The notes beneath the pieces were generated by a model that saw only the letters and a program-made list of their open reading frames with translations, had not been told where the DNA came from and searched no databases. From Dehalococcoidia bacterium (GTDB lineage: Bacteria; Chloroflexota; Dehalococcoidia; GIF9; AB-539-J10): 64,000 bases of DNA. Positions 22,354 through 32,790 of the stretch are shown one piece after another. The DNA lies in NCBI GenBank assembly GCA_003552125.1, contig PUON01000154.1, positions 21,965-85,964 of the forward strand, written 5' to 3'. How positions within the stretch are numbered: the stretch's first letter is position 1; every line of letters begins with the position of its first letter. The position numbers were made by a program, and so were the translations under genes.

Positions 22354-23541
22354 GTGACTCGTTTCATATTCCACGTTGATCTGGATGCGTTCTTCGTTGC
22401 GGTGGAGCAGCTTCACAATCCATCGCTGCGAGGAAAGCCAGTCATCGTTGGAGGCCAACCGGGCTCCCGCGGCGTCGTGTCGGCGGCTTCATACGAGGCA
22501 CGGGAATACGGAGTTCGCTCTGCAATGCCACTCATACAGGCGCAGCGACTCTGTCCGCAGGCGGTATTCCTCCCCGTTCACTACTCGCGCTACGCACAGG
22601 CATCGAAACAGTTCATGATGCTGCTGGAAACACTGTCGGCCCGATTGGAACCCCTCGGCCTCGACGAAGCGTTCCTCGATGTGTCTTCCGTGGTTACAGG
22701 CACCGGGGAAGCAGCTGCACTCGCCCAGGCTCTGAAGCGACGCGTCAGTGACGAGCTAGGTCTCTGCTGCTCCGTAGGAGTGGCTACCTGCAAGACTGTG
22801 GCAAAGGTCGCCTCGGATTTCGACAAACCGGATGGTCTCACTGTGGTCCCCCCGGGTGAGGAGGCCTCCTTTCTTGCTCCGCTGGAGATTCGAAAACTAC
22901 CCGGCGCAGGAAGGAAGACAGCAGAATGCCTCGGAGACCTGGGGGTGCACACCATAGGTCAACTGGCAAGTCTTCGGGAAGGCGTCGTACGGAACAAGCT
23001 CGGCAGATACGGCGATCTGCTGCTGCAGCACGCCAGAGGAATCGATACCAGCGAAGTCGAACCTCGCGGTGAACCGCGCTCAGTGAGCCGGGAGACGACG
23101 TTTCAAATCGACTCGCGAGATATCACCACGCTGTACTCAGTGTTGCGGGCTATGAGCGAGGAGGTGGCTCAAGACCTGCGAACTCATCGAAAGCGTGCGG
23201 GCACTGTCACTCTCAAGCTGCGCTACCAGGACTTCCAGACAGTTACACGCCAGACCACGCTCAAGAAGCACTCCGCCGATGCGAACGAGTTCTTTCTGGC
23301 CGCGAGAGATCTGCTGCAGAGACTCCTAAGCGTCGATGAGCGACTCGTCCGGCTCATAGGCATTCGGACCTCCCGGCTCTGCGGACCGGAGCATCAGTTG
23401 GGCATGTTCTCTTCCGATGCAGCCAGGCTGCAGAATCTGGAGAGGGTTATTACCGAGATCCATGATCGGTATGGACCGGACTCCATTCGCCCCCTGAGTG
23501 ACCGCAAAAGGAGCCGGGATTCTTCTCCTCGAAAGACTTGA
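22354..23541 (+). CDS. dinB: DNA polymerase IV.
   Basis: IFHVDLDAFFVAVEQ...PVIVGG ... Y-family polymerase motifs. Confidence 0.9.
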   Translation: MTRFIFHVDLDAFFVAVEQLHNPSLRGKPVIVGGQPGSRGVVSAASYEAREYGVRSAMPLIQAQRLCPQAVFLPVHYSRYAQASKQFMMLLETLSARLEPLGLDEAFLDVSSVVTGTGEAAALAQALKRRVSDELGLCCSVGVATCKTVAKVASDFDKPDGLTVVPPGEEASFLAPLEIRKLPGAGRKTAECLGDLGVHTIGQLASLREGVVRNKLGRYGDLLLQHARGIDTSEVEPRGEPRSVSRETTFQIDSRDITTLYSVLRAMSEEVAQDLRTHRKRAGTVTLKLRYQDFQTVTRQTTLKKHSADANEFFLAARDLLQRLLSVDERLVRLIGIRTSRLCGPEHQLGMFSSDAARLQNLERVITEIHDRYGPDSIRPLSDRKRSRDSSPRKT

Positions 23542-23567
23542 CAGGCGACACCCGGGCCCTCTATTAT
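23538..23567 (+). promoter_or_regulatory. Sigma-70-like promoter for the ilv leader.
   Basis: TTGACA (23538-23543, overlapping the dinB stop), an 18-nt spacer, and TATTAT (23562-23567). The leader ATG is at 23584. Confidence 0.5.
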
Positions 23568-23583
23568 CTACAGTTAATACGAC

Positions 23584-23682
23584 ATGGAAAGCCTTGCATT
23601 AATAGTCTCCCCCGGTCTCATCCTTATTAGCATCATCATTATTGTGCGCACCGTGCGTGCGCCCGGGAGGCTGTTCGGCTAG
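23584..23682 (+). CDS. ilvL: ilvB-operon attenuator leader peptide, 32 aa.
   Basis: MESLALIVSPGLILISIIIIVRTVRAPGRLFG has 15 of 32 residues as Ile/Leu/Val, including four consecutive Ile codons. It is followed by an antiterminator segment and a terminator. Confidence 0.75.
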   Translation: MESLALIVSPGLILISIIIIVRTVRAPGRLFG

Positions 23683-23708
23683 TCCATACCATCAGATCAA
23701 CGACAAGC

Positions 23709-23746
23709 AGAGGGGCTCTCCCGGGTGGAGAGCCCCTCTCTTTTGT
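23709..23746 (+). terminator. Attenuator terminator upstream of ilvB.
   Basis: 12-bp perfect stem AGAGGGGCUCUC/GAGAGCCCCUCU with a CCGGGUG loop, then CUUUUG. The upstream CCCGGGAG (23662-23669) is complementary to CUCCCGGG (23718-23725), giving an antiterminator. Confidence 0.8.
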
Positions 23747-23788: not shown

Positions 23789-25474
23789 ATGAATAGGACG
23801 GGTGCACAGATCCTCTGCGAATCCCTGGTACGCGAAGGGGTAGAAGTGATCTTCGGCATCTCCGGTGGTACCGTCATTCCCCTCTACGATGCCTTCTCGG
23901 AGTATCCGCAGATTCGGCGGGTCCTCGTGCGCCACGAGCAGGCTGCAGCCCACGCAGCTGCAGGCTATGCGCGGACGAAGCAGAAGGCAGGCGTATGTGT
24001 CGCCACTTCCGGACCGGGTGCCACTAACCTTGTGACCGGCATCGCCGATGCCTACATGGACTCCACTCCGATGGTTGTCATTACCGGACAGGTTGCCACA
24101 AGCTTCATCGGTAAAGACGCCTTTCAGGAATGCGACATCACGGGAATCACTCTGCCAATCATCAAGCACAACTATCTGGTACACGACGTGCGGGATCTGG
24201 CGCGAATCGTCAAGGAGGCGTTCCACATTGCTCAGACAGGCAGGCCGGGGCCGGTACTCATCGACATCCCCAAGAGCGTCCAGATGGCGGTGACCGAATT
24301 CGAGTATCCGGATTCAGTGGATCTGCCGGGCTACAAACCCACTGCGGAACCGGACTACTCGCATGTCACCTGTGCAGCAGAACTGCTCAACAGGGCTGAG
24401 CGGCCGGTTATTATGGCGGGCAGGGGAGTGATCGTTTCGCAGGCATACGAGGAGCTGAGACAACTCGCCGAAATGTATCAGGCTCCGGTCGTTCACACGA
24501 TGCTGGGCCTCGGTTCGTTCCCTCCGCAGCATGATCTCGATCTGGGCATGATCGGTCACCACGGCACTGTGGCTGCCAACAAAACCGTGCAGGCTGCGGA
24601 TCTTGTCCTGGCAGTGGGGACACGTTTCGGAGATCGTGCCACGATGAGAACCAGAGATTTCGCTCCTCATGCGGTAGTGGTGCACATTGACATAGACCCG
24701 GCTGAGATAGGCAAGAACGTGATTCCGTTCGCATCTGTTGTAGGAGACGCAAAGACCGTGCTGAACATGCTGATTCCGCTGGTTCAGCCGGCAGTCAGGC
24801 CAGAATGGATACAGCAGATCCGCACGTGGCGGTCGACACATCCGCTCGTACCCTGCGCCCGGACCTCCAAGCTGTCCGCCCGCACGGTGATCAGGAACGT
24901 CTGTCGCTCCGCCGACAGCCATACCGTCATAGTAACCGGGGTCGGCCAGCATCAGATGTTTACGGCCCAGGAATACATGTCTCCAAGAACGAACGGCCTG
25001 ATATCTTCTGGAGGACTTGGGACCATGGGATTCGAGCTCCCTGCCGCGATTGGAGCACAGTTGGCTTCTCCTGAAGACGCAGTGTGGGTGGTCGCCGGTG
25101 ACGGTGGCTTCCAGATGACCATGCAGGAGCTGTCAACCGTCGTACAGGAAGGTCTCTCCATCAAGATCGCCATTATCAGTAATGGATACCTGGGCATGGT
25201 GCGACAATGGCAGGATCTCTTCCAGCAACGCAACTACGTTGATGTGGCACTCCACGCGCCGGATTTTGTCAAGCTTGCCGACGCCTACGGCATCACCGCG
25301 ATGCGTGTCGAGACGGAGGAGGAGATTGGTCCTGCGCTGAGGAAAGCGAACGAACACAGTGGGCCGTTTCTGATCGACTTTGTAGTCGATGCCGAGGAAA
25401 ACGTATATCCGATGGTCGCGCCCGGAGCAAGCCTCGACTGTATTATCGAATCACCTGAGAAGGTCGCAGCTTGA
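23789..25474 (+). CDS. ilvB: Acetolactate synthase large subunit.
   Basis: ThDP-enzyme motifs. N-terminus MNRTGAQILCESLVREGVEVIFG. AAAGGAG SD. Confidence 0.9.
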   Translation: MNRTGAQILCESLVREGVEVIFGISGGTVIPLYDAFSEYPQIRRVLVRHEQAAAHAAAGYARTKQKAGVCVATSGPGATNLVTGIADAYMDSTPMVVITGQVATSFIGKDAFQECDITGITLPIIKHNYLVHDVRDLARIVKEAFHIAQTGRPGPVLIDIPKSVQMAVTEFEYPDSVDLPGYKPTAEPDYSHVTCAAELLNRAERPVIMAGRGVIVSQAYEELRQLAEMYQAPVVHTMLGLGSFPPQHDLDLGMIGHHGTVAANKTVQAADLVLAVGTRFGDRATMRTRDFAPHAVVVHIDIDPAEIGKNVIPFASVVGDAKTVLNMLIPLVQPAVRPEWIQQIRTWRSTHPLVPCARTSKLSARTVIRNVCRSADSHTVIVTGVGQHQMFTAQEYMSPRTNGLISSGGLGTMGFELPAAIGAQLASPEDAVWVVAGDGGFQMTMQELSTVVQEGLSIKIAIISNGYLGMVRQWQDLFQQRNYVDVALHAPDFVKLADAYGITAMRVETEEEIGPALRKANEHSGPFLIDFVVDAEENVYPMVAPGASLDCIIESPEKVAA

Positions 25475-25491
25475 CTGCCGGGAGGAGCACC

Positions 25492-25995
25492 ATGGAAGAG
25501 AAGCTGCACACCCTCGTCGCACTCGTTCAGGACGAACCAGGAGTCCTGACGCGCATCGCGGGACTGTTTCGCCGCAGGGGATTCAATATAGAGAGCCTCT
25601 CAGTGGGGCACTGCGAACAACACCGTCTGTCGCGCATGACCATCGTAGTTAAGGGGGATGATGCAGAAGTCGACCAGGTGACCAGGCAACTCGACAAGCT
25701 GATAAACGTCGTGAGTGTCACCGACATCACTCGTTGCGACATGGTCGCAAGGGAACTCGCCCTGATTAAGGTGACAGCCACATCTGAGGATCGCAGCGAA
25801 ATCATGCAGATGGTCGATATCTATCGCGCGAAGATAGTCGATGTTGCCCCTGACTCAGTCACCGTGGAGATTACCGGGGGGGAAGACAAGATCGACTCTC
25901 TTCTCACTTTGCTCAGGCCCTTTGGGATCACTGAAATGGCGAGAACCGGACGAACGGCGCTCATCAGGGGCGCCAAATCCAGTATCAATAATTAA
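25492..25995 (+). CDS. ilvN: Acetolactate synthase small (regulatory) subunit.
   Basis: ACT domain [30 protein letters not shown]. Confidence 0.9.
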
Positions 25996-26015
25996 GCGGA
26001 TTGGAGGATTTCGAC

Positions 26016-27008
26016 ATGGCCAAGGTTTACTACGACAGCGACGCCGATCTTTCTCACTTGAAGGGAGGCGTCATAGGCATCGTTGGTTACGGCAGCCAGG
26101 GACACGCCCATGCGCAGAACCTAAGAGACAGTGGCTGCGAGGTGGTGGTGGCAAGCAGGCCCGGCGGTGCCGGCTGGAAAGCGGCCGAGGCTGATGGCTT
26201 TGCCGTCATGAGCGTCGCACAGGCGACGAAGAAGGCGGACATCCTGACGCTGTTGGCGCCCGACAATCAGCATGCCGCGATATATACTGAGTCGATCGAG
26301 CCGAACCTGACGGCGGGTAAGACGCTCATGTTCGCTCATGGCTTCAACGTTCATTTCTCCCAGGTTGTGCCTCCCCGGGATGTAGACGTCAGCATGGTGG
26401 CGCCGAAGTGTCCCGGACACATGCTTCGGGCAATATACACGGAAGACGCAGGCCCTCCGGCCATCATGGCCGTGTATCAGGACGTCTCCGGCAAGGCGAA
26501 GGAGGTGGCCCTGGCGTACGCCAGGGGTCTTGGCTGTACTCGTGCGGGCGTCATCGAGACGACGTTCGCGGAGGAGACCGAGACCGACCTGTTTGGTGAA
26601 CAGACCGTGCTCTGTGGCGGAGTGACCGCCCTGATCAAGGCAGGATTTGACACGCTTGTCGAAGCTGGTTACCAGCCGGAGATCGCCTACTTCGAATGCC
26701 TCAACGAGTTGAAGCTTATCGTTGACCTCATCTACCAGGGTGGAATGAAGTACATGCGCTACTCGGTTAGCGATGTCGCCGAGTTCGGCGACTACACCCG
26801 GGGACCACGCATCATAAATGAGTCAGTCCGCGAGGAGATGAGAAAGGTACTCAAGGAAGTCAAGGATGGCACGTTCGCTCTCGAATGGGTCGTGGAAAAC
26901 CAGGCGGGTCGGCCTCATTTCAACGCCATGAAAAGAAACGAACAACAGGAGCTCATCGAGGTAGTCGGTGAGCAATTGAGAGGAATGATGCCATGGACGA
27001 AGAAGTAG
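26016..27008 (+). CDS. ilvC: Ketol-acid reductoisomerase.
   Basis: [13 protein letters not shown]...[17 protein letters not shown]. Confidence 0.95.
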
Positions 27009-28636
27009 ACATTACGAGGGAGAGGTGCGGACAGGAACCGCCCCCTTCGCCCGTTCTCAGATCAGTACCCGACACCGTTATCATCTTCGATACAACCCTG
27101 CGGGATGGAGAGCAGGCTGCAGGCACGAGCCTCACCGCGAAGGAGAAGCTCACCATCGCGCGACAACTCGACACTTTGGGTGTCGATGTCATCGAAGCGG
27201 GCTTTCCGATAAGCTCGCCGGGCGATTTCGAGGCTGTGCAACTCATCGCCCGGGAAGTACGTCGGCCGGTCATCTGCGCCCTGGCGCATTGCAGACCAGC
27301 TGCAATCGACCGGGCATGGGAGGCGCTCAGAGAGGCCCCTCACCCGCGCATCCACGTCTTTCTGTCCGCCTCGGACGTACAACTCGCCCACATGCTCAAG
27401 AAGAGCCGTCAGGAGGCTCTGGAACTGGCACGTGAGATGGTGGCAAGGGCAAAGACCTACACAGACGACGTGGAGTTCTCCCCGATGGACGCCACACGTG
27501 CCGAGCCGGAGTTTCTGAACCAGTTGCTTGCAGCAGTCATTGATGCCGGAGCTGTCACCGTGAACATCGCCGATACCGTCGGCTATAGCACGGTAAACGA
27601 GTTCTCCTCGCTGATACATGGAATCACGAAGAATGTAGCGAACATCGACAGCGCCTGCATCAGCGTCCACTGTCACGATGATCTCGGCCTGGCAGTTGCG
27701 AATAGCCTGGAAGCTGTGCGAATGGGAGCCAGGCAGGTTGAGTGCACCATAAACGGCATCGGTGAGCGCGCCGGCAACGCTGCACTGGAAGAAATCGTAA
27801 TGGCGTTGCGAACACGGGCAGATACGTTCTCCGTGGCAACAAACATAGACACCACTCAACTCTACAAGACAAGCAGGTCGGTGAGCGACCTCACCGGGTT
27901 CCTTGTACAATCGAACAAGGCAATCGTGGGTGCGAACGCGTTCAGACACCAGTCCGGCATACACCAGGACGGGATGGTTAAGGAGTCCTCCACATACGAG
28001 ATCATGGACCCGCGATCCGTCGGAATCCCCGCCAGCAGTCTTGTACTCGGGAAACTGAGTGGCAAGCATGCATTTCGTGAACGACTGGCCGAGCTGGGGT
28101 TTTCTCTCAGCGATGAGGCGTTGAGTCATTCATTCCAGGCGTTCAAGGAACTGGCCGACAAGAAGCGAGAGATACGGGACCGCGACCTGATATCGCTCGT
28201 TAGCGAAGAGCTCCGGCAGGAGACCCAGGTGTACCGGCTGGATCACGTCGATGTCTCCTGCGGCGACCACAGCCTGCACTCGGCAGCCGTGCGCCTCATC
28301 GGCCCGGAAGGCCAGATCCTTGCGGATGCAGCTCTTGGCACCGGACCGGTGGATGCCGTGTACCAGGTGATCAACCGGATCATCGGCATTCCCAACACAC
28401 TCGTAGAGTTCAGCATTAACGCGAATACCGAGGGATTCGATGCCATCGGAGAGGTGCTAATTCGCATCGAGAGCGAGGGCGGACTCTATACAGGCCGTGG
28501 CGCATCCACAGATATCGTTGTGGCCAGCGCAAAAGCGTACATGAACGCACTTAACCGGCTGATTCTCTCCCGGCAGGAACATGTGGATCAATCCGGGGCC
28601 GGGAACTACAATCGCGGTATGCACGAGGCATCGTGA
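26993..28636 (+). CDS. leuA: 2-isopropylmalate synthase (a citramalate synthase cannot be excluded).
   Basis: [11 protein letters not shown]. HxH metal site. A C-terminal LeuA-type regulatory domain is present. The start is uncertain. Confidence 0.85.
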
Positions 28637-29931
28637 TGGCCACCATCACAGAGAAGATTCTGGCAGCACACTCCGGGCGGGCCTTCGTCTCGCCCGGAGA
28701 TTTCGCCAATGTGTCGGTGGATATGGTGCTCGCCAACGACATCACCGGTCCTCTCGCCATCAGGGAATTCCGCAAGCTGGGTGTGACACGTGTGTTCAAT
28801 CCGGCGCGCGTGGTAATGGTGCCTGACCACTTCATACCCAACAAGGACATCCCATCGGCGATTCAGGCACAGGACATTCGCGAATTCGCGAGGGAGCAGG
28901 GTATCGTGTATTTCGAGGCCGGGAGGTCCGGAATCGAACACGTGTTGCTACCCGAGGAAGGTCTTGTCGGACCCGGGCACGTCGTCATTGGTGCCGATTC
29001 TCACACCTGCACCTACGGCGCCCTTGGTGCCTTCGCGACCGGCATGGGATCTACTGACATCGCTGCCGCCATGGCCACCGGGGACATCTGGATGAAGGTG
29101 CCTCCCACGATCAAGCTGGTGTTCCATGGGTCGCTCCAGCCCTGGACCAGCGGCAAAGACCTCATCCTGCACGCCATCGGCGACATCGGCATCGACGGGG
29201 CTCTGTATTCAGCCATGGAGTTTCACGGTGAGGCAATCCAGTTCATGGACATGGACGGGCGGTTCACGATGGCCAACATGGCCATCGAGGCAGGGGCAAA
29301 GGCCGGCGTATTCGAAGTCGATGCCACCACCGAAGAATACCTCGCCACACATCCTCAACGCGCGGGAACCGCACCCTGCCGGAGATACTTCACCGATTCG
29401 AACGCGGACTACTCGAGAATCATCGAATACGATGCCTCAACGATCGAGCCCGTGGTTGCGTTTCCACATCTCCCGTCAAACGTCAGGCCGGCGAGCACGG
29501 CCGGTGACGTGGTAATCGATCAGGTGGTCATCGGAAGCTGCACAAACGGCCGCCTGTCGGATCTGCGCATTGCGGCGCAGATCCTGCGCGGCCGCTCCGT
29601 CCACGAGTCGCTGAGATGCATCATAATTCCGGGATCGCAAAGGGTCTACCGGCAGGCAGTGGACGAGGGACTGGTCCACGTGTTCCTCGACGCGGGTGCG
29701 GTGGTCAGCACGCCCACCTGCGGCCCCTGCCTCGGAGGGTACATGGGAATCCTCGCGCCCGGCGAGCGTTGTCTCTCGACCACTAACCGGAACTTCGTCG
29801 GCCGGATGGGAAGTCCTCAGTCCGAGGTATACCTTTCCAGCCCGGCGGTCGCTGCAGCCACCGCAATCGCTGGCAGAATCTCACCGCCCGGGAACACATA
29901 CGGAGAGTCCAGGGAGGAAATCTCATGGTAG
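28633..29931 (+). CDS. leuC: 3-isopropylmalate dehydratase large subunit.
   Basis: Aconitase-family domain. Overlaps the leuA stop. Confidence 0.9.
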
Positions 29932-30431
29932 TGTTGCGTGGCAAAGCACACCTCTACGGCGCAGACGTGGACACAGACGCTATCATCCCGGCACGATACC
30001 TGAACGTCTCTGAACCTGCTCTCCTTGCAGAACACTGTATGGAGGATATCGATCCCGGGTTCCGTGAACGGGTGTCTGAGGGCGACGTAATCGTGGCCAC
30101 CACGAACTTCGGTTGCGGGTCGTCACGTGAGCATGCCCCTATTGCGATCAAGGCCTGTGGCGTATCGTGTATCATCGCCCATAGCTTCGCCCGCATCTTC
30201 TTCCGCAACGCGATCAATATCGGGCTACCCCTGCTCGAATGCCCCGAAGCCGTCTCCGGCTGCACGGACGGTGATATACTGGAAATCGACCTCATCGAAG
30301 GCAAGGTAACCAATGCGACGAGAGCACTGTCTTTCACCGCCAAGCCTTACCCACAGTTCATGATGGGCATTGTCAACGCCGGGGGTCTCATTGCATACAC
30401 GAAGCGAAGACTGGAGGAAATAGAGGCATGA
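29925..30431 (+). CDS. leuD: 3-isopropylmalate dehydratase small subunit.
   Basis: Aconitase swivel domain. Its ATG lies just upstream of the leuC stop. Confidence 0.9.
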   Translation: MVVLRGKAHLYGADVDTDAIIPARYLNVSEPALLAEHCMEDIDPGFRERVSEGDVIVATTNFGCGSSREHAPIAIKACGVSCIIAHSFARIFFRNAINIGLPLLECPEAVSGCTDGDILEIDLIEGKVTNATRALSFTAKPYPQFMMGIVNAGGLIAYTKRRLEEIEA

Positions 30432-31525
30432 GCTACAGAATCGCAGTGCTCCGGGGAGACGGAATCGGTCCGGAAGTGACTGTGGAGGCGCTCAAGGCAC
30501 TTGCTGCCATAAGGGAGCGATACGGACACGATTTCGCCTACGAGGAGGGACTTGTCGGAGGGGCATCAATTGACGAATTGGGTGTTCCCATGACCGATGA
30601 GACGCTGGCACTATGCCAAAGCTCCGATGCCGTCCTGTTCGGAGCGGCAGGAGGTCCAAAATGGGATGACGCCAGCACCGATTTTCGGCCGGAACAGGCA
30701 CTGTTTCGCCTCCGCAAGGAACTTAACCTCTTCGCCAACCTGAGGCCGGTACGATCCTATCCAATGCTCGATGAGATGAGTCCGCTGCGACCAGAGGTGG
30801 TGAAGGGGGCGGACATCATCTTCGTGAGAGAACTCACGGGCGGCCTCTATTTCGGACAGCCAAAAATGCGATGGGAGACTCCTGAAGGGAGACGCGCAGT
30901 TGATTCGGAGGACTATTCAGAACAAGAGATCGCCAGGGTGGTCCGTGTCGCATGCGAACTGGCCAGGAAACGACGCAGAAAGGTTGTGTCTGTAGACAAG
31001 TTCAACGCCCTCATTTCGTCCCGGCTCTGGCGACAGGTCGCGACTGAGGTCGGTGCGGAGTACCCCGATATCGACCTTACGCACATGCTGGCCGATACGT
31101 TTGCGATGCAACTCATCGTGCGTCCGACCCAATTCGATGTAGTCGTCACCACCAACATGTTCGGGGACATATTCACCGATGAGGCCGCTGTGCTTGCGGG
31201 TTCGATGGGCATGCTTCCCTCTGCGAGTCTTTCAGGGCTGCCCTCCGGAAGGACGCTCGGCCTCTACGAACCGATTCATGGCTCCGCTCCTGATATCGCC
31301 GGACAGGGTATAGCCAATCCGCTTGCCTCGATACTCTGTTGTGCACTACTTCTCAGGTACTCCCTGGGACTCGAGGAAGAGGCACGAGTTGTGGCTGATG
31401 CCGTCACGACGGTACTTGAGGAGGGATACCGGACGAGCGATATTCACTCGGAGGGAACGAGCAAGGTAAGCACCCAAGAGATGGGAGATCTGGTTGCTGC
31501 CAGAATTCGTGAGCCGAGGGGTTGA
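30428..31525 (+). CDS. leuB: 3-isopropylmalate dehydrogenase.
   Basis: IAVLRGDGIGPEV ... ATGA overlap with leuD. Confidence 0.9.
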   Translation: MSYRIAVLRGDGIGPEVTVEALKALAAIRERYGHDFAYEEGLVGGASIDELGVPMTDETLALCQSSDAVLFGAAGGPKWDDASTDFRPEQALFRLRKELNLFANLRPVRSYPMLDEMSPLRPEVVKGADIIFVRELTGGLYFGQPKMRWETPEGRRAVDSEDYSEQEIARVVRVACELARKRRRKVVSVDKFNALISSRLWRQVATEVGAEYPDIDLTHMLADTFAMQLIVRPTQFDVVVTTNMFGDIFTDEAAVLAGSMGMLPSASLSGLPSGRTLGLYEPIHGSAPDIAGQGIANPLASILCCALLLRYSLGLEEEARVVADAVTTVLEEGYRTSDIHSEGTSKVSTQEMGDLVAARIREPRG

Positions 31526-31577
31526 CACTGTACTACCGGCTTCTTACAATGTTAGCTTGTCGGCTGGAAGGTTGCGA

Positions 31578-31679
31578 ATGATAGCTCCAGTGGTACTTGT
31601 GACAATCGTGGTGGCAGCTGCGATCCTTATCGTGCGCACTGATGGTGCGCACGGGAGGATTCTTCAGCCGGCAAGATAG
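31578..31679 (+). CDS. Second BCAA attenuator leader peptide, 33 aa, upstream of ilvE.
   Basis: MIAPVVLVTIVVAAAILIVRTDGAHGRILQPAR has 14 of 33 residues as Val/Ile/Leu. A GGAAGG SD lies 6 nt upstream. Confidence 0.75.
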   Translation: MIAPVVLVTIVVAAAILIVRTDGAHGRILQPAR

Positions 31680-31708
31680 GCAGATACAGCAAGTCCGATA
31701 AGAGAAAC

Positions 31709-31742
31709 GAAGAAGCCTCCCGAGGGAGGCTTCTTCTTATTC
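31709..31742 (+). terminator. Attenuator terminator upstream of ilvE.
   Basis: Stem GAAGAAGCCUCCC/GGGAGGCUUCUUC with a GAG loop, then UUAUU. The upstream GGGAGGAUUCUUC (31653-31665) can pair with the 5' arm as an antiterminator. A perfect pause hairpin GUGCGCAC-UGAUG-GUGCGCAC lies at 31632-31652. Confidence 0.8.
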
Positions 31743-31872
31743 GGGGGATGCGACGGGAAGACAGGGAGGAATGGTAGAGGCCGGCAACTGGTACGACACC
31801 CGTCCCCGGGCGAAACGCAGCGCCGCGGAGCCGGGGAGATGACCGAAGACTTATGACAGGAGGAATGCGACA

Positions 31873-32790
31873 TTGGAACCCTATGCCTTTTTCAAAGGAG
31901 AGTACATGCCTCTCAAGGATGCCAAGATTGGCATCCTGACTCAGGCGCTGCACTACGGCACCGCATGCTTCGGCGGAATACGCGCGAACTGGGACGCCGA
32001 GAGAGAGCAGTTCTGCATATTCCGGCTGAAGGATCACTACCGCCGTCAGCTCGATGCGTGCAAGATCCTGAACATTGAACTGCCGTATGACGAGCACGAT
32101 CTTGCCGGGTTCACCGTGGAAACCTTGAAGCGGGCCGGCTTCAGGGAGAATCTCTACTGCAGGCCGCTCGCCTACAAGTCCTCGGAGGCGATCGGGGTGA
32201 AGCTACACGACCTCGAGGACGATTTCTTCGTCATCGTAACCCCTCTTCCCCCGTACCTGGGCACCGGCGGAATCAAGTGCTGTACGTCATCCTGGCGGAG
32301 AGTGAGCGACAGCCAGATATCGCCCCGGGGAAAGATCACCGGCATCTACGTCAACAGCGCGCTCGCGAAGACCGACGCCAACAGAACAGGCTTTGATGAA
32401 GCCATCATGCTGAACGAAAAGGGACACGTATCCGAGGGAACTGGCGAGAACATCTTTGTAGTCATCAAGGGACAGCTCATCACTCCTCCCTCCTATGACA
32501 GCATCCTGCTCGGAATCACCCGGGATAGCGTGATGCAACTGGCGCAGAACGAATTGGGTCTGCAGACTGTTGAACGCAGCATCGACCGAAGTGAGCTGTA
32601 CGTGGCGGATGAGGCGTTCTTCACGGGTACCGCGACCAATGTCGCGCCAATCGTGTCGGTCGACCTGCGGACGATCGGCAACGGCGAAACCGGTCCGATT
32701 ACAGCAAGGCTTCAGGAATTGTATGCAGAGGTGGCACTGGGACGCAATCCGAAGTACTCTGAGTGGTACACGATTGTGAAGCAGGACTAG
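31873..32790 (+). CDS. ilvE: Branched-chain amino-acid aminotransferase.
   Basis: ...KGEYMPLKDAKIGILTQALHYGTACFGGIR. TTG start after ACAGGAGGA. Confidence 0.9.
   Translation: MEPYAFFKGEYMPLKDAKIGILTQALHYGTACFGGIRANWDAEREQFCIFRLKDHYRRQLDACKILNIELPYDEHDLAGFTVETLKRAGFRENLYCRPLAYKSSEAIGVKLHDLEDDFFVIVTPLPPYLGTGGIKCCTSSWRRVSDSQISPRGKITGIYVNSALAKTDANRTGFDEAIMLNEKGHVSEGTGENIFVVIKGQLITPPSYDSILLGITRDSVMQLAQNELGLQTVERSIDRSELYVADEAFFTGTATNVAPIVSVDLRTIGNGETGPITARLQELYAEVALGRNPKYSEWYTIVKQD

Follow-up and report, generated by a model that had tools for sequence, protein, structure and literature searches.

The question raised by this stretch of DNA is whether the last gene of a biosynthetic cluster carries a control switch of its own. 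The gene is ilvE, for branched-chain amino acid (BCAA) transaminase, and the stretch is 64,000 nucleotides of contig PUON01000154.1 from a Dehalococcoidia bacterium (phylum Chloroflexota); throughout, ‘the window’ refers to this whole stretch. Its + strand carries a BCAA cluster in which leuB and ilvE are separated by a spacer of 347 nt. Leader-peptide attenuators are the textbook switches that tune amino-acid genes to the charging of tRNA, and a first-pass annotation proposed that the spacer contains one, a second BCAA attenuator paralogous to another upstream of ilvB. A comparison of 27 sequences supports this proposal. We consider it probable (about 0.8), from the sequence and its conservation, that the spacer holds a ribosome-mediated (leader-peptide) transcription attenuator dedicated to ilvE.

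The leader region of ilvE

The following features, given with the means by which they were found, make up the proposed switch:

31522-31550, + strand: promoter P2, consisting of a -35 hexamer TTGACA (31522-31527), a 17-nt spacer and a -10 hexamer TACAAT (31545-31550) (consensus scan, 11/12)
31566-31571, + strand: Shine-Dalgarno (SD)-like sequence GGAAGG, 6 nt upstream of the leader ATG (sequence)
31578-31679, + strand: leader open reading frame (ORF), 33 codons followed by TAG (31677-31679), encoding MIAPVVLVTIVVAAAILIVRTDGAHGRILQPAR (sequence, alignment)
31622-31661, + strand: hairpin 1:2, the presumptive anti-antiterminator and putative pause hairpin (minimum-free-energy (MFE) and centroid fold, repeat finder)
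31652-31665, + strand: region 2, CGGGAGGATTCTTC, the predicted 5′ strand of the antiterminator, duplicating the 3′ arm of the terminator (repeat finder)
31709-31741, + strand: intrinsic terminator, consisting of region 3 (GAAGAAGCCTCCC, 31709-31721), a loop GA, region 4 (GGGAGGCTTCTTC, 31724-31736) and a tail TTATT (repeat finder)

P2 is one of the two best promoter matches in 18 kb in the consensus scan; the other is the promoter of the ilvB attenuator. Transcription from P2 is predicted to start near 31557. Among genome-derived sequences, TTGACA is invariant and TAnAAT conserved in 12 of 12, and TTGACA is kept also in relatives whose leuB stops a few codons earlier. Because the hexamer is conserved where leuB ends earlier, it is the promoter, rather than coding sequence, that is under selection. 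In the window, the stop codon of leuB (TGA, 31523-31525) sits inside the -35 hexamer. The consensus scan of the window found no sigma-70-like promoter between the terminator and ilvE. The first-pass annotation listed neither P2 nor another conserved block, which follows the terminator ahead of ilvE and is described below.

Between this promoter and ilvE lies a short ORF with a start codon and a ribosome-binding site. Its product contains 5 Ile, 6 Val and 3 Leu, making 14 BCAAs in 33 amino acids (aa). The leader is enriched in this way in codons for the end products of the pathway, and three of them, CUU AUC GUG, fall in the 5′ arm of hairpin 1:2. The core of this hairpin is a perfect 9-bp inverted repeat inside the ORF (CGTGCGCAC, 31631-31639, and GTGCGCACG, 31645-31653) that encloses a 5-nt loop; in the lower stem, the codons CUU AUC pair with GGGAG of region 2. 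Region 2 recurs in the terminator: GGGAGGATTCTTC (31653-31665) is identical at 12 of 13 positions to GGGAGGCTTCTTC (31724-31736), and 31652-31665 is 93% complementary to GAAGAAGCCTCCCG (31709-31722). The terminator itself, 184 nt past the leuB stop, has arms complementary at 13 of 13 positions and a GC-rich core, GCCUCCC/GGGAGGC. The antiterminator (2:3) is exclusive with this terminator (3:4), and hairpin 1:2 is in turn exclusive with the antiterminator; column-wise covariation is weak. The first-pass annotation had described the 33-aa leader with its 14 BCAAs and GGAAGG, the perfect hairpin inside it, the duplicated terminator arm and the antiterminator pairing. Direct reading of the sequence and the repeat finder bear these out, with feature coordinates correct to within 1 nt.

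RNA folding, which the first-pass annotation had suggested as a check, gives the same picture. The 194-nt leader folds at -83.3 kcal/mol, compared with -61.7 +/- 4.3 kcal/mol for shuffled versions (z = -5.1), and none of 200 shuffles folds as well. Hairpin 1:2 is present in both the MFE and the centroid structures. When region 1 is masked and region 4 is absent, region 2 of the window pairs with 31709-31722 instead (13 pairs, -23.7 kcal/mol). The window MFE also contains a long-range helix, 31553-31566/31665-31678; it is not conserved across the alignment, with 45.8% of its cells paired, the same as in slid controls, and we treat it as incidental.

We propose that the switch would operate as follows. 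Transcripts would start at P2, overlapping the end of leuB, and readthrough from the ilv-leu operon would also enter the leader; these longer transcripts would have to pass the same gate, because no terminator lies between leuB and the leader. Region 1, comprising the codons CUU AUC GUG CGC AC, would form a strong hairpin with region 2 (GUGCGCAC GGGAGG...). When charged Val-, Ile- and Leu-tRNAs are plentiful, the ribosome would pass regions 1 and 2 on its way to the stop codon at 31677, leaving region 2 unavailable. Region 2 would be unavailable, too, if the leader were not translated, for hairpin 1:2 would then form. Either way, regions 3 and 4 would pair, and RNA polymerase would terminate at the U-rich run ending near 31741. 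A ribosome stalled on BCAA codons in, or just before, region 1 would release region 2 and allow it (GGGAGGAUUCUUC) to pair with region 3 (GAAGAAGCCUCCC). No terminator would then form, and transcription would proceed into ilvE. The pausing role of hairpin 1:2, the translation of the leader, the stalling, the efficiency of termination and the identity of the amino acids sensed are what we infer from sequence.

Conservation and paralogues

The switch was followed through related genomes by a protein-anchored scan that took one genome per species and yielded 80 ilvE loci. The closest relatives of the ilvE of the window are from Dehalococcoidia metagenome-assembled genomes (MAGs). The 11 closest loci (80-96% identical) all have the order ilvBNC-leuACDB-ilvE, with leuB-ilvE spacers of 368-407 nt, and the full module is present in 11 of these 11 species genomes. 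None of the 69 more distant Dehalococcoidia and Chloroflexota loci, in which ilvE is not adjacent to leuB, has the module upstream of ilvE. A BCAA-rich short ORF occurs in 4 of them and a simple hairpin with a T-run in 21, and only one (L063) has ORF and hairpin close together, the hairpin being weak (6 bp; tail TGCTTCTG). Metagenome contigs, scanned for the exact motif, added 46 matches in 43 contigs. Of these matches, 14 precede ilvB, 20 precede ilvE, 5 precede a third operon and 7 are in unrelated or unclear places. Genomes and metagenome contigs together gave 27 distinct ilvE-type sequences, which were aligned.

The alignment has the marks of a translated leader. An ATG stands at the aligned position in 27 of 27 sequences, 48, 51 or 54 nt from the hairpin and always in frame with it. 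Differences in leader length are all multiples of three, and the ORF encodes 29-33 aa in every case. The N-terminal part varies freely yet stays hydrophobic and rich in BCAAs. In the ilvE type, the 12 codons that end with the Val of VRT have the composition V 36%, A 23%, I 16%, L 9% and M 7%, and Val, Ile and Leu together make up 61%.

The alternative pairings are likewise kept. For the conformation 1:2 plus 3:4, 87% of cells are paired, compared with 43-60% for slid partners, and 7 pairs have compensatory changes, a number reached by none of 500 shuffles. The core pairs of hairpin 1:2 are invariant, and the C-G, U-A and U-G pairs of its lower stem are kept in 21-27 of the 27 sequences. The terminator alone has 93.7% of cells paired and 4 compensatory pairs. 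For the antiterminator, 88.6-93.1% of cells are paired, compared with 48-74% for slid partners; one outer pair changes from UA to CG in 6 sequences (the L005/L006 type), with regions 2, 3 and 4 changed together. When region 1 is masked, as it would be under a stalled ribosome, and region 4 is left out, 26 of 29 ilvE-attenuator sequences have MFE structures in which region 2 takes up 9 or more of the 10-22 nt of region 3; in the remaining 3, the figures are 7/7, 7/14 and 11/18 nt. Duplexes of region 2 with its own region 3 average -21.74 kcal/mol, compared with -20.6 +/- 0.25 kcal/mol for permuted partners (0 of 1000 as good), a cognate match that is supportive, not conclusive, kinship of the sequences being apt to inflate such statistics. 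The first-pass annotation had staked its claim on relatives retaining the leader ORF and the alternative pairings, and had proposed to look for co-variation: the ORF is in frame throughout, the terminator is kept with compensatory changes, and the 2:3 pairing is kept with limited ones.

The module belongs to ilvE, and remains in front of it in loci without leuB or without any of the ilv-leu operon. In two loci (L094, L099) it lies directly 3′ of leuD, with no leuB in the cluster. In a third (L098), which lacks the ilv-leu genes altogether, dinB and ilvE flank it, and its own TTGACA/TAGAAT promoter is kept. This last locus (L098:7300-9000, - strand), and a truncated one (L093), represent a more distant lineage, with ilvE 66% identical and the order dinB, promoter, leader (MASGALQMYVCMAVMIIVRTHSALGRLLT), terminator, ilvE. 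Recombination between two directly repeated attenuators could have removed the 8-kb operon in L098; a single crossover of attenuators 1 and 2 was considered and set aside, as it does not explain the mosaic nature of the leader, in which the N-terminus and terminator resemble attenuator 2 and the middle resembles attenuator 1. In L110 and L120, a second ilvE-like gene (63% identical) immediately follows ilvE.

Attenuator 1, the counterpart upstream of ilvBNC-leuACDB, is conserved by the same clade and consists of:

23538-23745, + strand: attenuator 1 as a whole
23538-23567, + strand: promoter
23584 to 23680-23682, + strand: leader, from ATG to TAG, encoding MESLALIVSPGLILISIIIIVRTVRAPGRLFG
23644-23670, + strand: motif
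23709-23739, + strand: terminator, followed by CTTTTGT

The motif is a 27-nt sequence of the form GTGCGCAC-N5-GTGCGC-NN-GGGAGG. The + strand of the window has exactly two copies of it, one in each attenuator, where 0.01 would be expected. The two attenuators share the order of their parts, the TTGACA promoter, the core TTATYGTGCGCAC-N5-GTGCGC-NN-GGGAGG, a leader whose end reads ..IVRTx.A.GRL.. and a terminator based on CUCC/GGAG. The common core, part order and kind of promoter support the first-pass view that they are paralogues. They differ in the codons nearest the hairpin, the last 12 codons of the ilvB leader being I 33%, L 24%, V 16% and S 15%, compared with V 36%, A 23% and I 16% in the ilvE leader, and in the terminator arms (AGAGGGGCUCUCC in the ilvB attenuator, GAAGAAGCCUCCC in the ilvE attenuator). 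The ilvB attenuator has a clean U-tract, unlike that of ilvE, and the matching of its region 2 to its region 3 is not significant. In the window, dinB precedes the ilvB attenuator.

A third paralogue was seen in L090 (9700-10000, - strand) and also in L082, L091, L097 and L115, on contigs with a lower GC content (0.47-0.52). It has its own TTGACA promoter, a leader of the form M[FY][LF]ARSNPENAKFIFTVRTGGAHGRF or MQKTIFLGELEKQKFIFIVRTRGARGRYEGSI (e.g. MFLARSNPENAKFIFTVRTGGAHGRF), a GTGCGCAC hairpin as in the other two and a terminator of ACCTCCC/GGGAGGT. The operon that it precedes encodes an AMP-binding ligase, LivH, LivM, a periplasmic binding protein (Peripla_BP_6), an ABC ATPase and a PaaK-like ligase. 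Its leader suggests Phe/Ile-sensing control of an operon for the uptake of hydrophobic amino acids or aromatic acids. The matching of regions extends across the paralogues: the third group has GGGAGGU in regions 2 and 4 with ACCUCCC in region 3, and the ilvE group has GGGAGGC with GCCUCCC.

Other candidate leader ORFs occur in the 330 nt upstream of ilvB elsewhere in the Chloroflexota: one with a Leu run (..VLLLLLLL.., L037), two with ..IPVVVAGGRAF.. (L047, L054) and one reading MRTDISIDASSTVANGGPLVMPVLLVLVLI (L075). Control of ilvB by leader peptides built on unrelated scaffolds may therefore be common across the phylum. Two high-GC metagenome contigs (L096:~1900-1990 and L101:~2140-2330, - strand orientation) match the motif only through tandem arrays of the 13-nt GGTGCGCACNNNN. 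L101 has a further, inverted copy of the array. Both are unrelated to the attenuators.

The 5′ untranslated region of ilvE and the gene cluster

Beyond the terminator, the 5′ untranslated region (UTR) of ilvE contains the conserved block that the first-pass annotation had passed over. It and the genes of the cluster, whose identities were confirmed against NCBIfam, are as follows:

31764-31769, + strand: GGGAGG box about 25 nt past the terminator, the form taken in the window by the conserved GAAAGGAGG box (alignment of 28 ilvE 5′ UTRs)
31800-31834, + strand: element H, a stem-loop of CCGTC-C-CCG-GGC, a 10-nt loop with GCAGC, and GCC-G-CGG-A-GCCGG (recurring per-sequence MFE folds)
31858-31863, + strand: SD sequence of ilvE, AGGAGG, 9 nt 5′ of TTG (GGAGG column invariant in the alignment)
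31873-32790, + strand: ilvE, BCAA transaminase, 305 aa, TTG start (NF005146, 354 bits with a cut-off of 279; TIGR01122, 324 bits)
23789-25474, + strand: ilvB
25471-25995, + strand: ilvN
26001-27008, + strand: ilvC
26993-28636, + strand: leuA
28633-29931, + strand: leuC
29925-30431, + strand: leuD
30428-31525, + strand: leuB, stop codon TGA 31523-31525

The start of ilvE had been placed too far downstream, at ATG 31906. The true start is TTG 31873, where relatives have ATG at the aligned position. In the relatives inspected, no start codon follows the GAAAGGAGG box within range, giving no second small ORF. Element H has 82.6% of cells paired, compared with 37-55% for slid partners, and 3 compensatory pairs, a number that 27 of 500 shuffles reach. 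These changes include CCG/CGG to CGG/CCG in L094 and UUCUG/CAGAA in L002. RNAalifold support for the element is weak, and it has no match in Rfam. It could be a second layer of control, or an element for stability. RNAalifold, applied to the whole intergenic alignment, also proposed a pairing between GGCAGCAGC of the leader and GCAGCGCC of the 5′ UTR. We did not adopt it; both sides are nearly invariant, and the GCC is needed for the stem of element H as well.

Weighing the explanations

Several observations weigh against a ribosome-mediated attenuator at ilvE. Relatives have CAGGTTG in place of the SD-like GGAAGG, a weaker SD sequence. Ala does not belong to the end products of the pathway, and the conservation of its codons, which are about 23% of those nearest the hairpin, has no obvious reason. 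The U-rich run of the terminator, UUCUUCUUAUU, is broken by a C, which makes the efficiency of termination uncertain, and the run is poorer in some relatives (e.g. UUCCUGCUAUU). Covariation in 2:3 is thin: the GGGAGG/CCUCCC core never varies, a double change is seen in one pair alone, and the counts do not rise above the column-shuffle control. What is fixed in the GUGCGCAC stems is the sequence itself and not just the pairing, which the simple model does not need; among the 22 sequences retrieved without the motif, the only variant is that of attenuator 1 in L004 (GUACGCAC/GUGCGU), which forms the series G-C, G-U, A-U. To our knowledge, moreover, transcription-translation coupling has not been studied in Dehalococcoidia.

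The invariance of the stems, which are identical in three otherwise diverged groups of paralogues with a single variant, where selection for pairing alone would allow more covariation, is what one would expect if a protein or RNA acting in trans read the GUGCGCAC-N5-GUGCGC hairpin, in the manner of TRAP-, PyrR- or Bgl-type attenuation, with translation of the leader secondary or absent. We rate this, the main rival, as quite improbable because such a factor needs neither the ORF signature (ATG in frame in 27 of 27, indels in multiples of three and a variable but BCAA-rich N-terminus) nor a codon mix that shifts with the operon controlled (Ile/Leu, Val/Ala/Ile or Phe/Ile). The L004 variant, besides, points to RNA pairing over a fixed recognition sequence, and there is no linked candidate gene for a regulator. 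Alternatively, promoter, ORF and terminator could together be a self-contained small gene for a hydrophobic micro-protein of one helix, with ilvE expressed by readthrough or from an unrecognised promoter. The peptide does resemble one transmembrane helix with a basic tail, amino-acid sequence is conserved in its C-terminal half (LIVRTxGAHGRL), and conservation extends to ORF, promoter and terminator together. However, the conserved residues correspond exactly to the RNA stems; the loop codon is free (D, Y, E, M, A, I or V), H is replaced by R or Q, and R by G, if the pairing permits, and the N-terminal half is not conserved in sequence. Conservation of the peptide independently of RNA structure, the mark of a small membrane protein or type I toxin, is not what is seen. 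With region 2 duplicating the terminator arm and tracking its changes, the paralogues always upstream of amino-acid operons, and the module travelling with ilvE, we think a micro-protein very unlikely.

That the hairpin is simply the terminator at the end of ilvBNC-leuACDB, with the ORF and promoter-like sequence there by chance, would suit its position 184 nt after the leuB stop and its modest U-tract. Conservation of the promoter, the ORF and the alternative pairing in 27 sequences effectively refutes this, as do the persistence of the element upstream of ilvE in loci without leuB or the whole operon, and the use of the same scaffold upstream of ilvB, where nothing needs terminating. Leader-peptide attenuation, our preferred explanation, might also be incomplete rather than wrong. 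The invariant hairpin of the three attenuators could be recognised by a trans-acting factor, or could act as a specific signal for polymerase pausing or for the ribosome, and so add a second, global input to codon-specific stalling, with element H and the SD-like boxes forming a further layer after attenuation; we regard this elaboration as speculative and rather improbable. A DNA operator, in the form of the GTGCGCAC palindrome repeated at 13-bp spacing, was also considered and rejected: the palindrome is about 75 nt from the start of the transcript, within a conserved ORF, and the L004 variant is compensatory in the manner of RNA.

Precedents for such a switch are well known in other phyla. 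Escherichia coli has BCAA leaders of 32 aa with 15 BCAAs (ilvGMEDA), 32 aa with 11 BCAAs (ilvBN) and 28 aa with 4 Leu (leu) (PMC6123439); the ilvE leader described here, with 14 BCAAs in 33 aa, is almost the same in size and BCAA content as the first. Like ilvL, ivbL and leuL of E. coli and Salmonella, the elements here combine a leader of some 30 codons rich in Ile, Leu and Val with a terminator and an exclusive antiterminator, and several attenuators with different codon mixes serve one pathway. Unlike the enterobacterial leaders, which they resemble neither in sequence nor by covariance model, they occur in the phylum Chloroflexota, class Dehalococcoidia. In E. coli, ilvE is internal to ilvGMEDA and has no attenuator of its own, whereas here it has a private promoter and attenuator after leuB. 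BCAA-rich upstream ORFs with terminators have also been described or predicted ahead of BCAA genes in Gram-positives, namely Staphylococcus aureus (ilvD leader; PMC5794164), Corynebacterium (ilvB upstream ORF; PMC10272879) and Actinobacteria (ilvB leaders; PMC1262725), but these, unlike the ilvE attenuator, control the first gene of an operon. The ilvE gene of S. aureus is described as regulated by CodY rather than attenuated (PMC5794164), and that of Streptococcus mutans is also under CodY control (PMC6123439). Mutation of the leader codons of Streptomyces ilvB had no effect (PMC1262725), a warning that predictions of this kind can fail.

The T-box leader of ilv-leu genes in Firmicutes is likewise a terminator/antiterminator switch upstream of BCAA genes that senses the charging of tRNA. 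Unlike the leader here, it binds uncharged tRNA directly, exceeds 200 nt, has a specifier loop and does without an ORF. A search of 31500-31920 gave no T-box match even at E <= 10. Nor did Rfam, whose amino-acid leader families include Leu_leader, Thr_leader, His_leader, Trp_leader and Phe_leader, give a match at the gathering threshold in the window and 5 related loci, or any at threshold in the locus searched at E <= 10; the best match below threshold was Phe_leader (21.7 bits, threshold 55), which covered the terminator hairpin only. In the literature, we found no leader-peptide attenuator dedicated to ilvE, and none in Dehalococcoidia or Chloroflexi, with the reservation that an earlier mention in a cross-phylum survey (Lopatovskaya et al. 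2010) cannot be excluded. The first-pass annotation had called two independent attenuators unusual, on the ground that ilvE is rarely attenuated separately. For ilvE, that holds insofar as no ilvE-dedicated leader-peptide attenuator was found described; several BCAA attenuators with different codon mixes are, by themselves, the logic of E. coli (PMC6123439). The ilvE attenuator is unusual in its place and phylum, and is not a new mechanism or regulatory principle.

The finding provides a first indication of leader-peptide control in the class Dehalococcoidia. If it is correct, classical leader-peptide attenuation extends to this largely uncultured class, whose gene regulation has been little studied, and transcription is coupled to translation there. 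The final transamination step would receive an amino-acid input of its own. The paralogues would illustrate how switches evolve, one hairpin/terminator scaffold having been duplicated and re-coded for an ilv-leu operon (Ile/Leu), a transaminase (Val/Ala/Ile) and a transporter operon (Phe/Ile). For annotation, it would follow that ORFs of about 30 codons such as these should be designated leader peptides rather than hypothetical proteins, and that the motif may serve as a simple handle by which to find amino-acid-regulated operons in MAGs of this kind.

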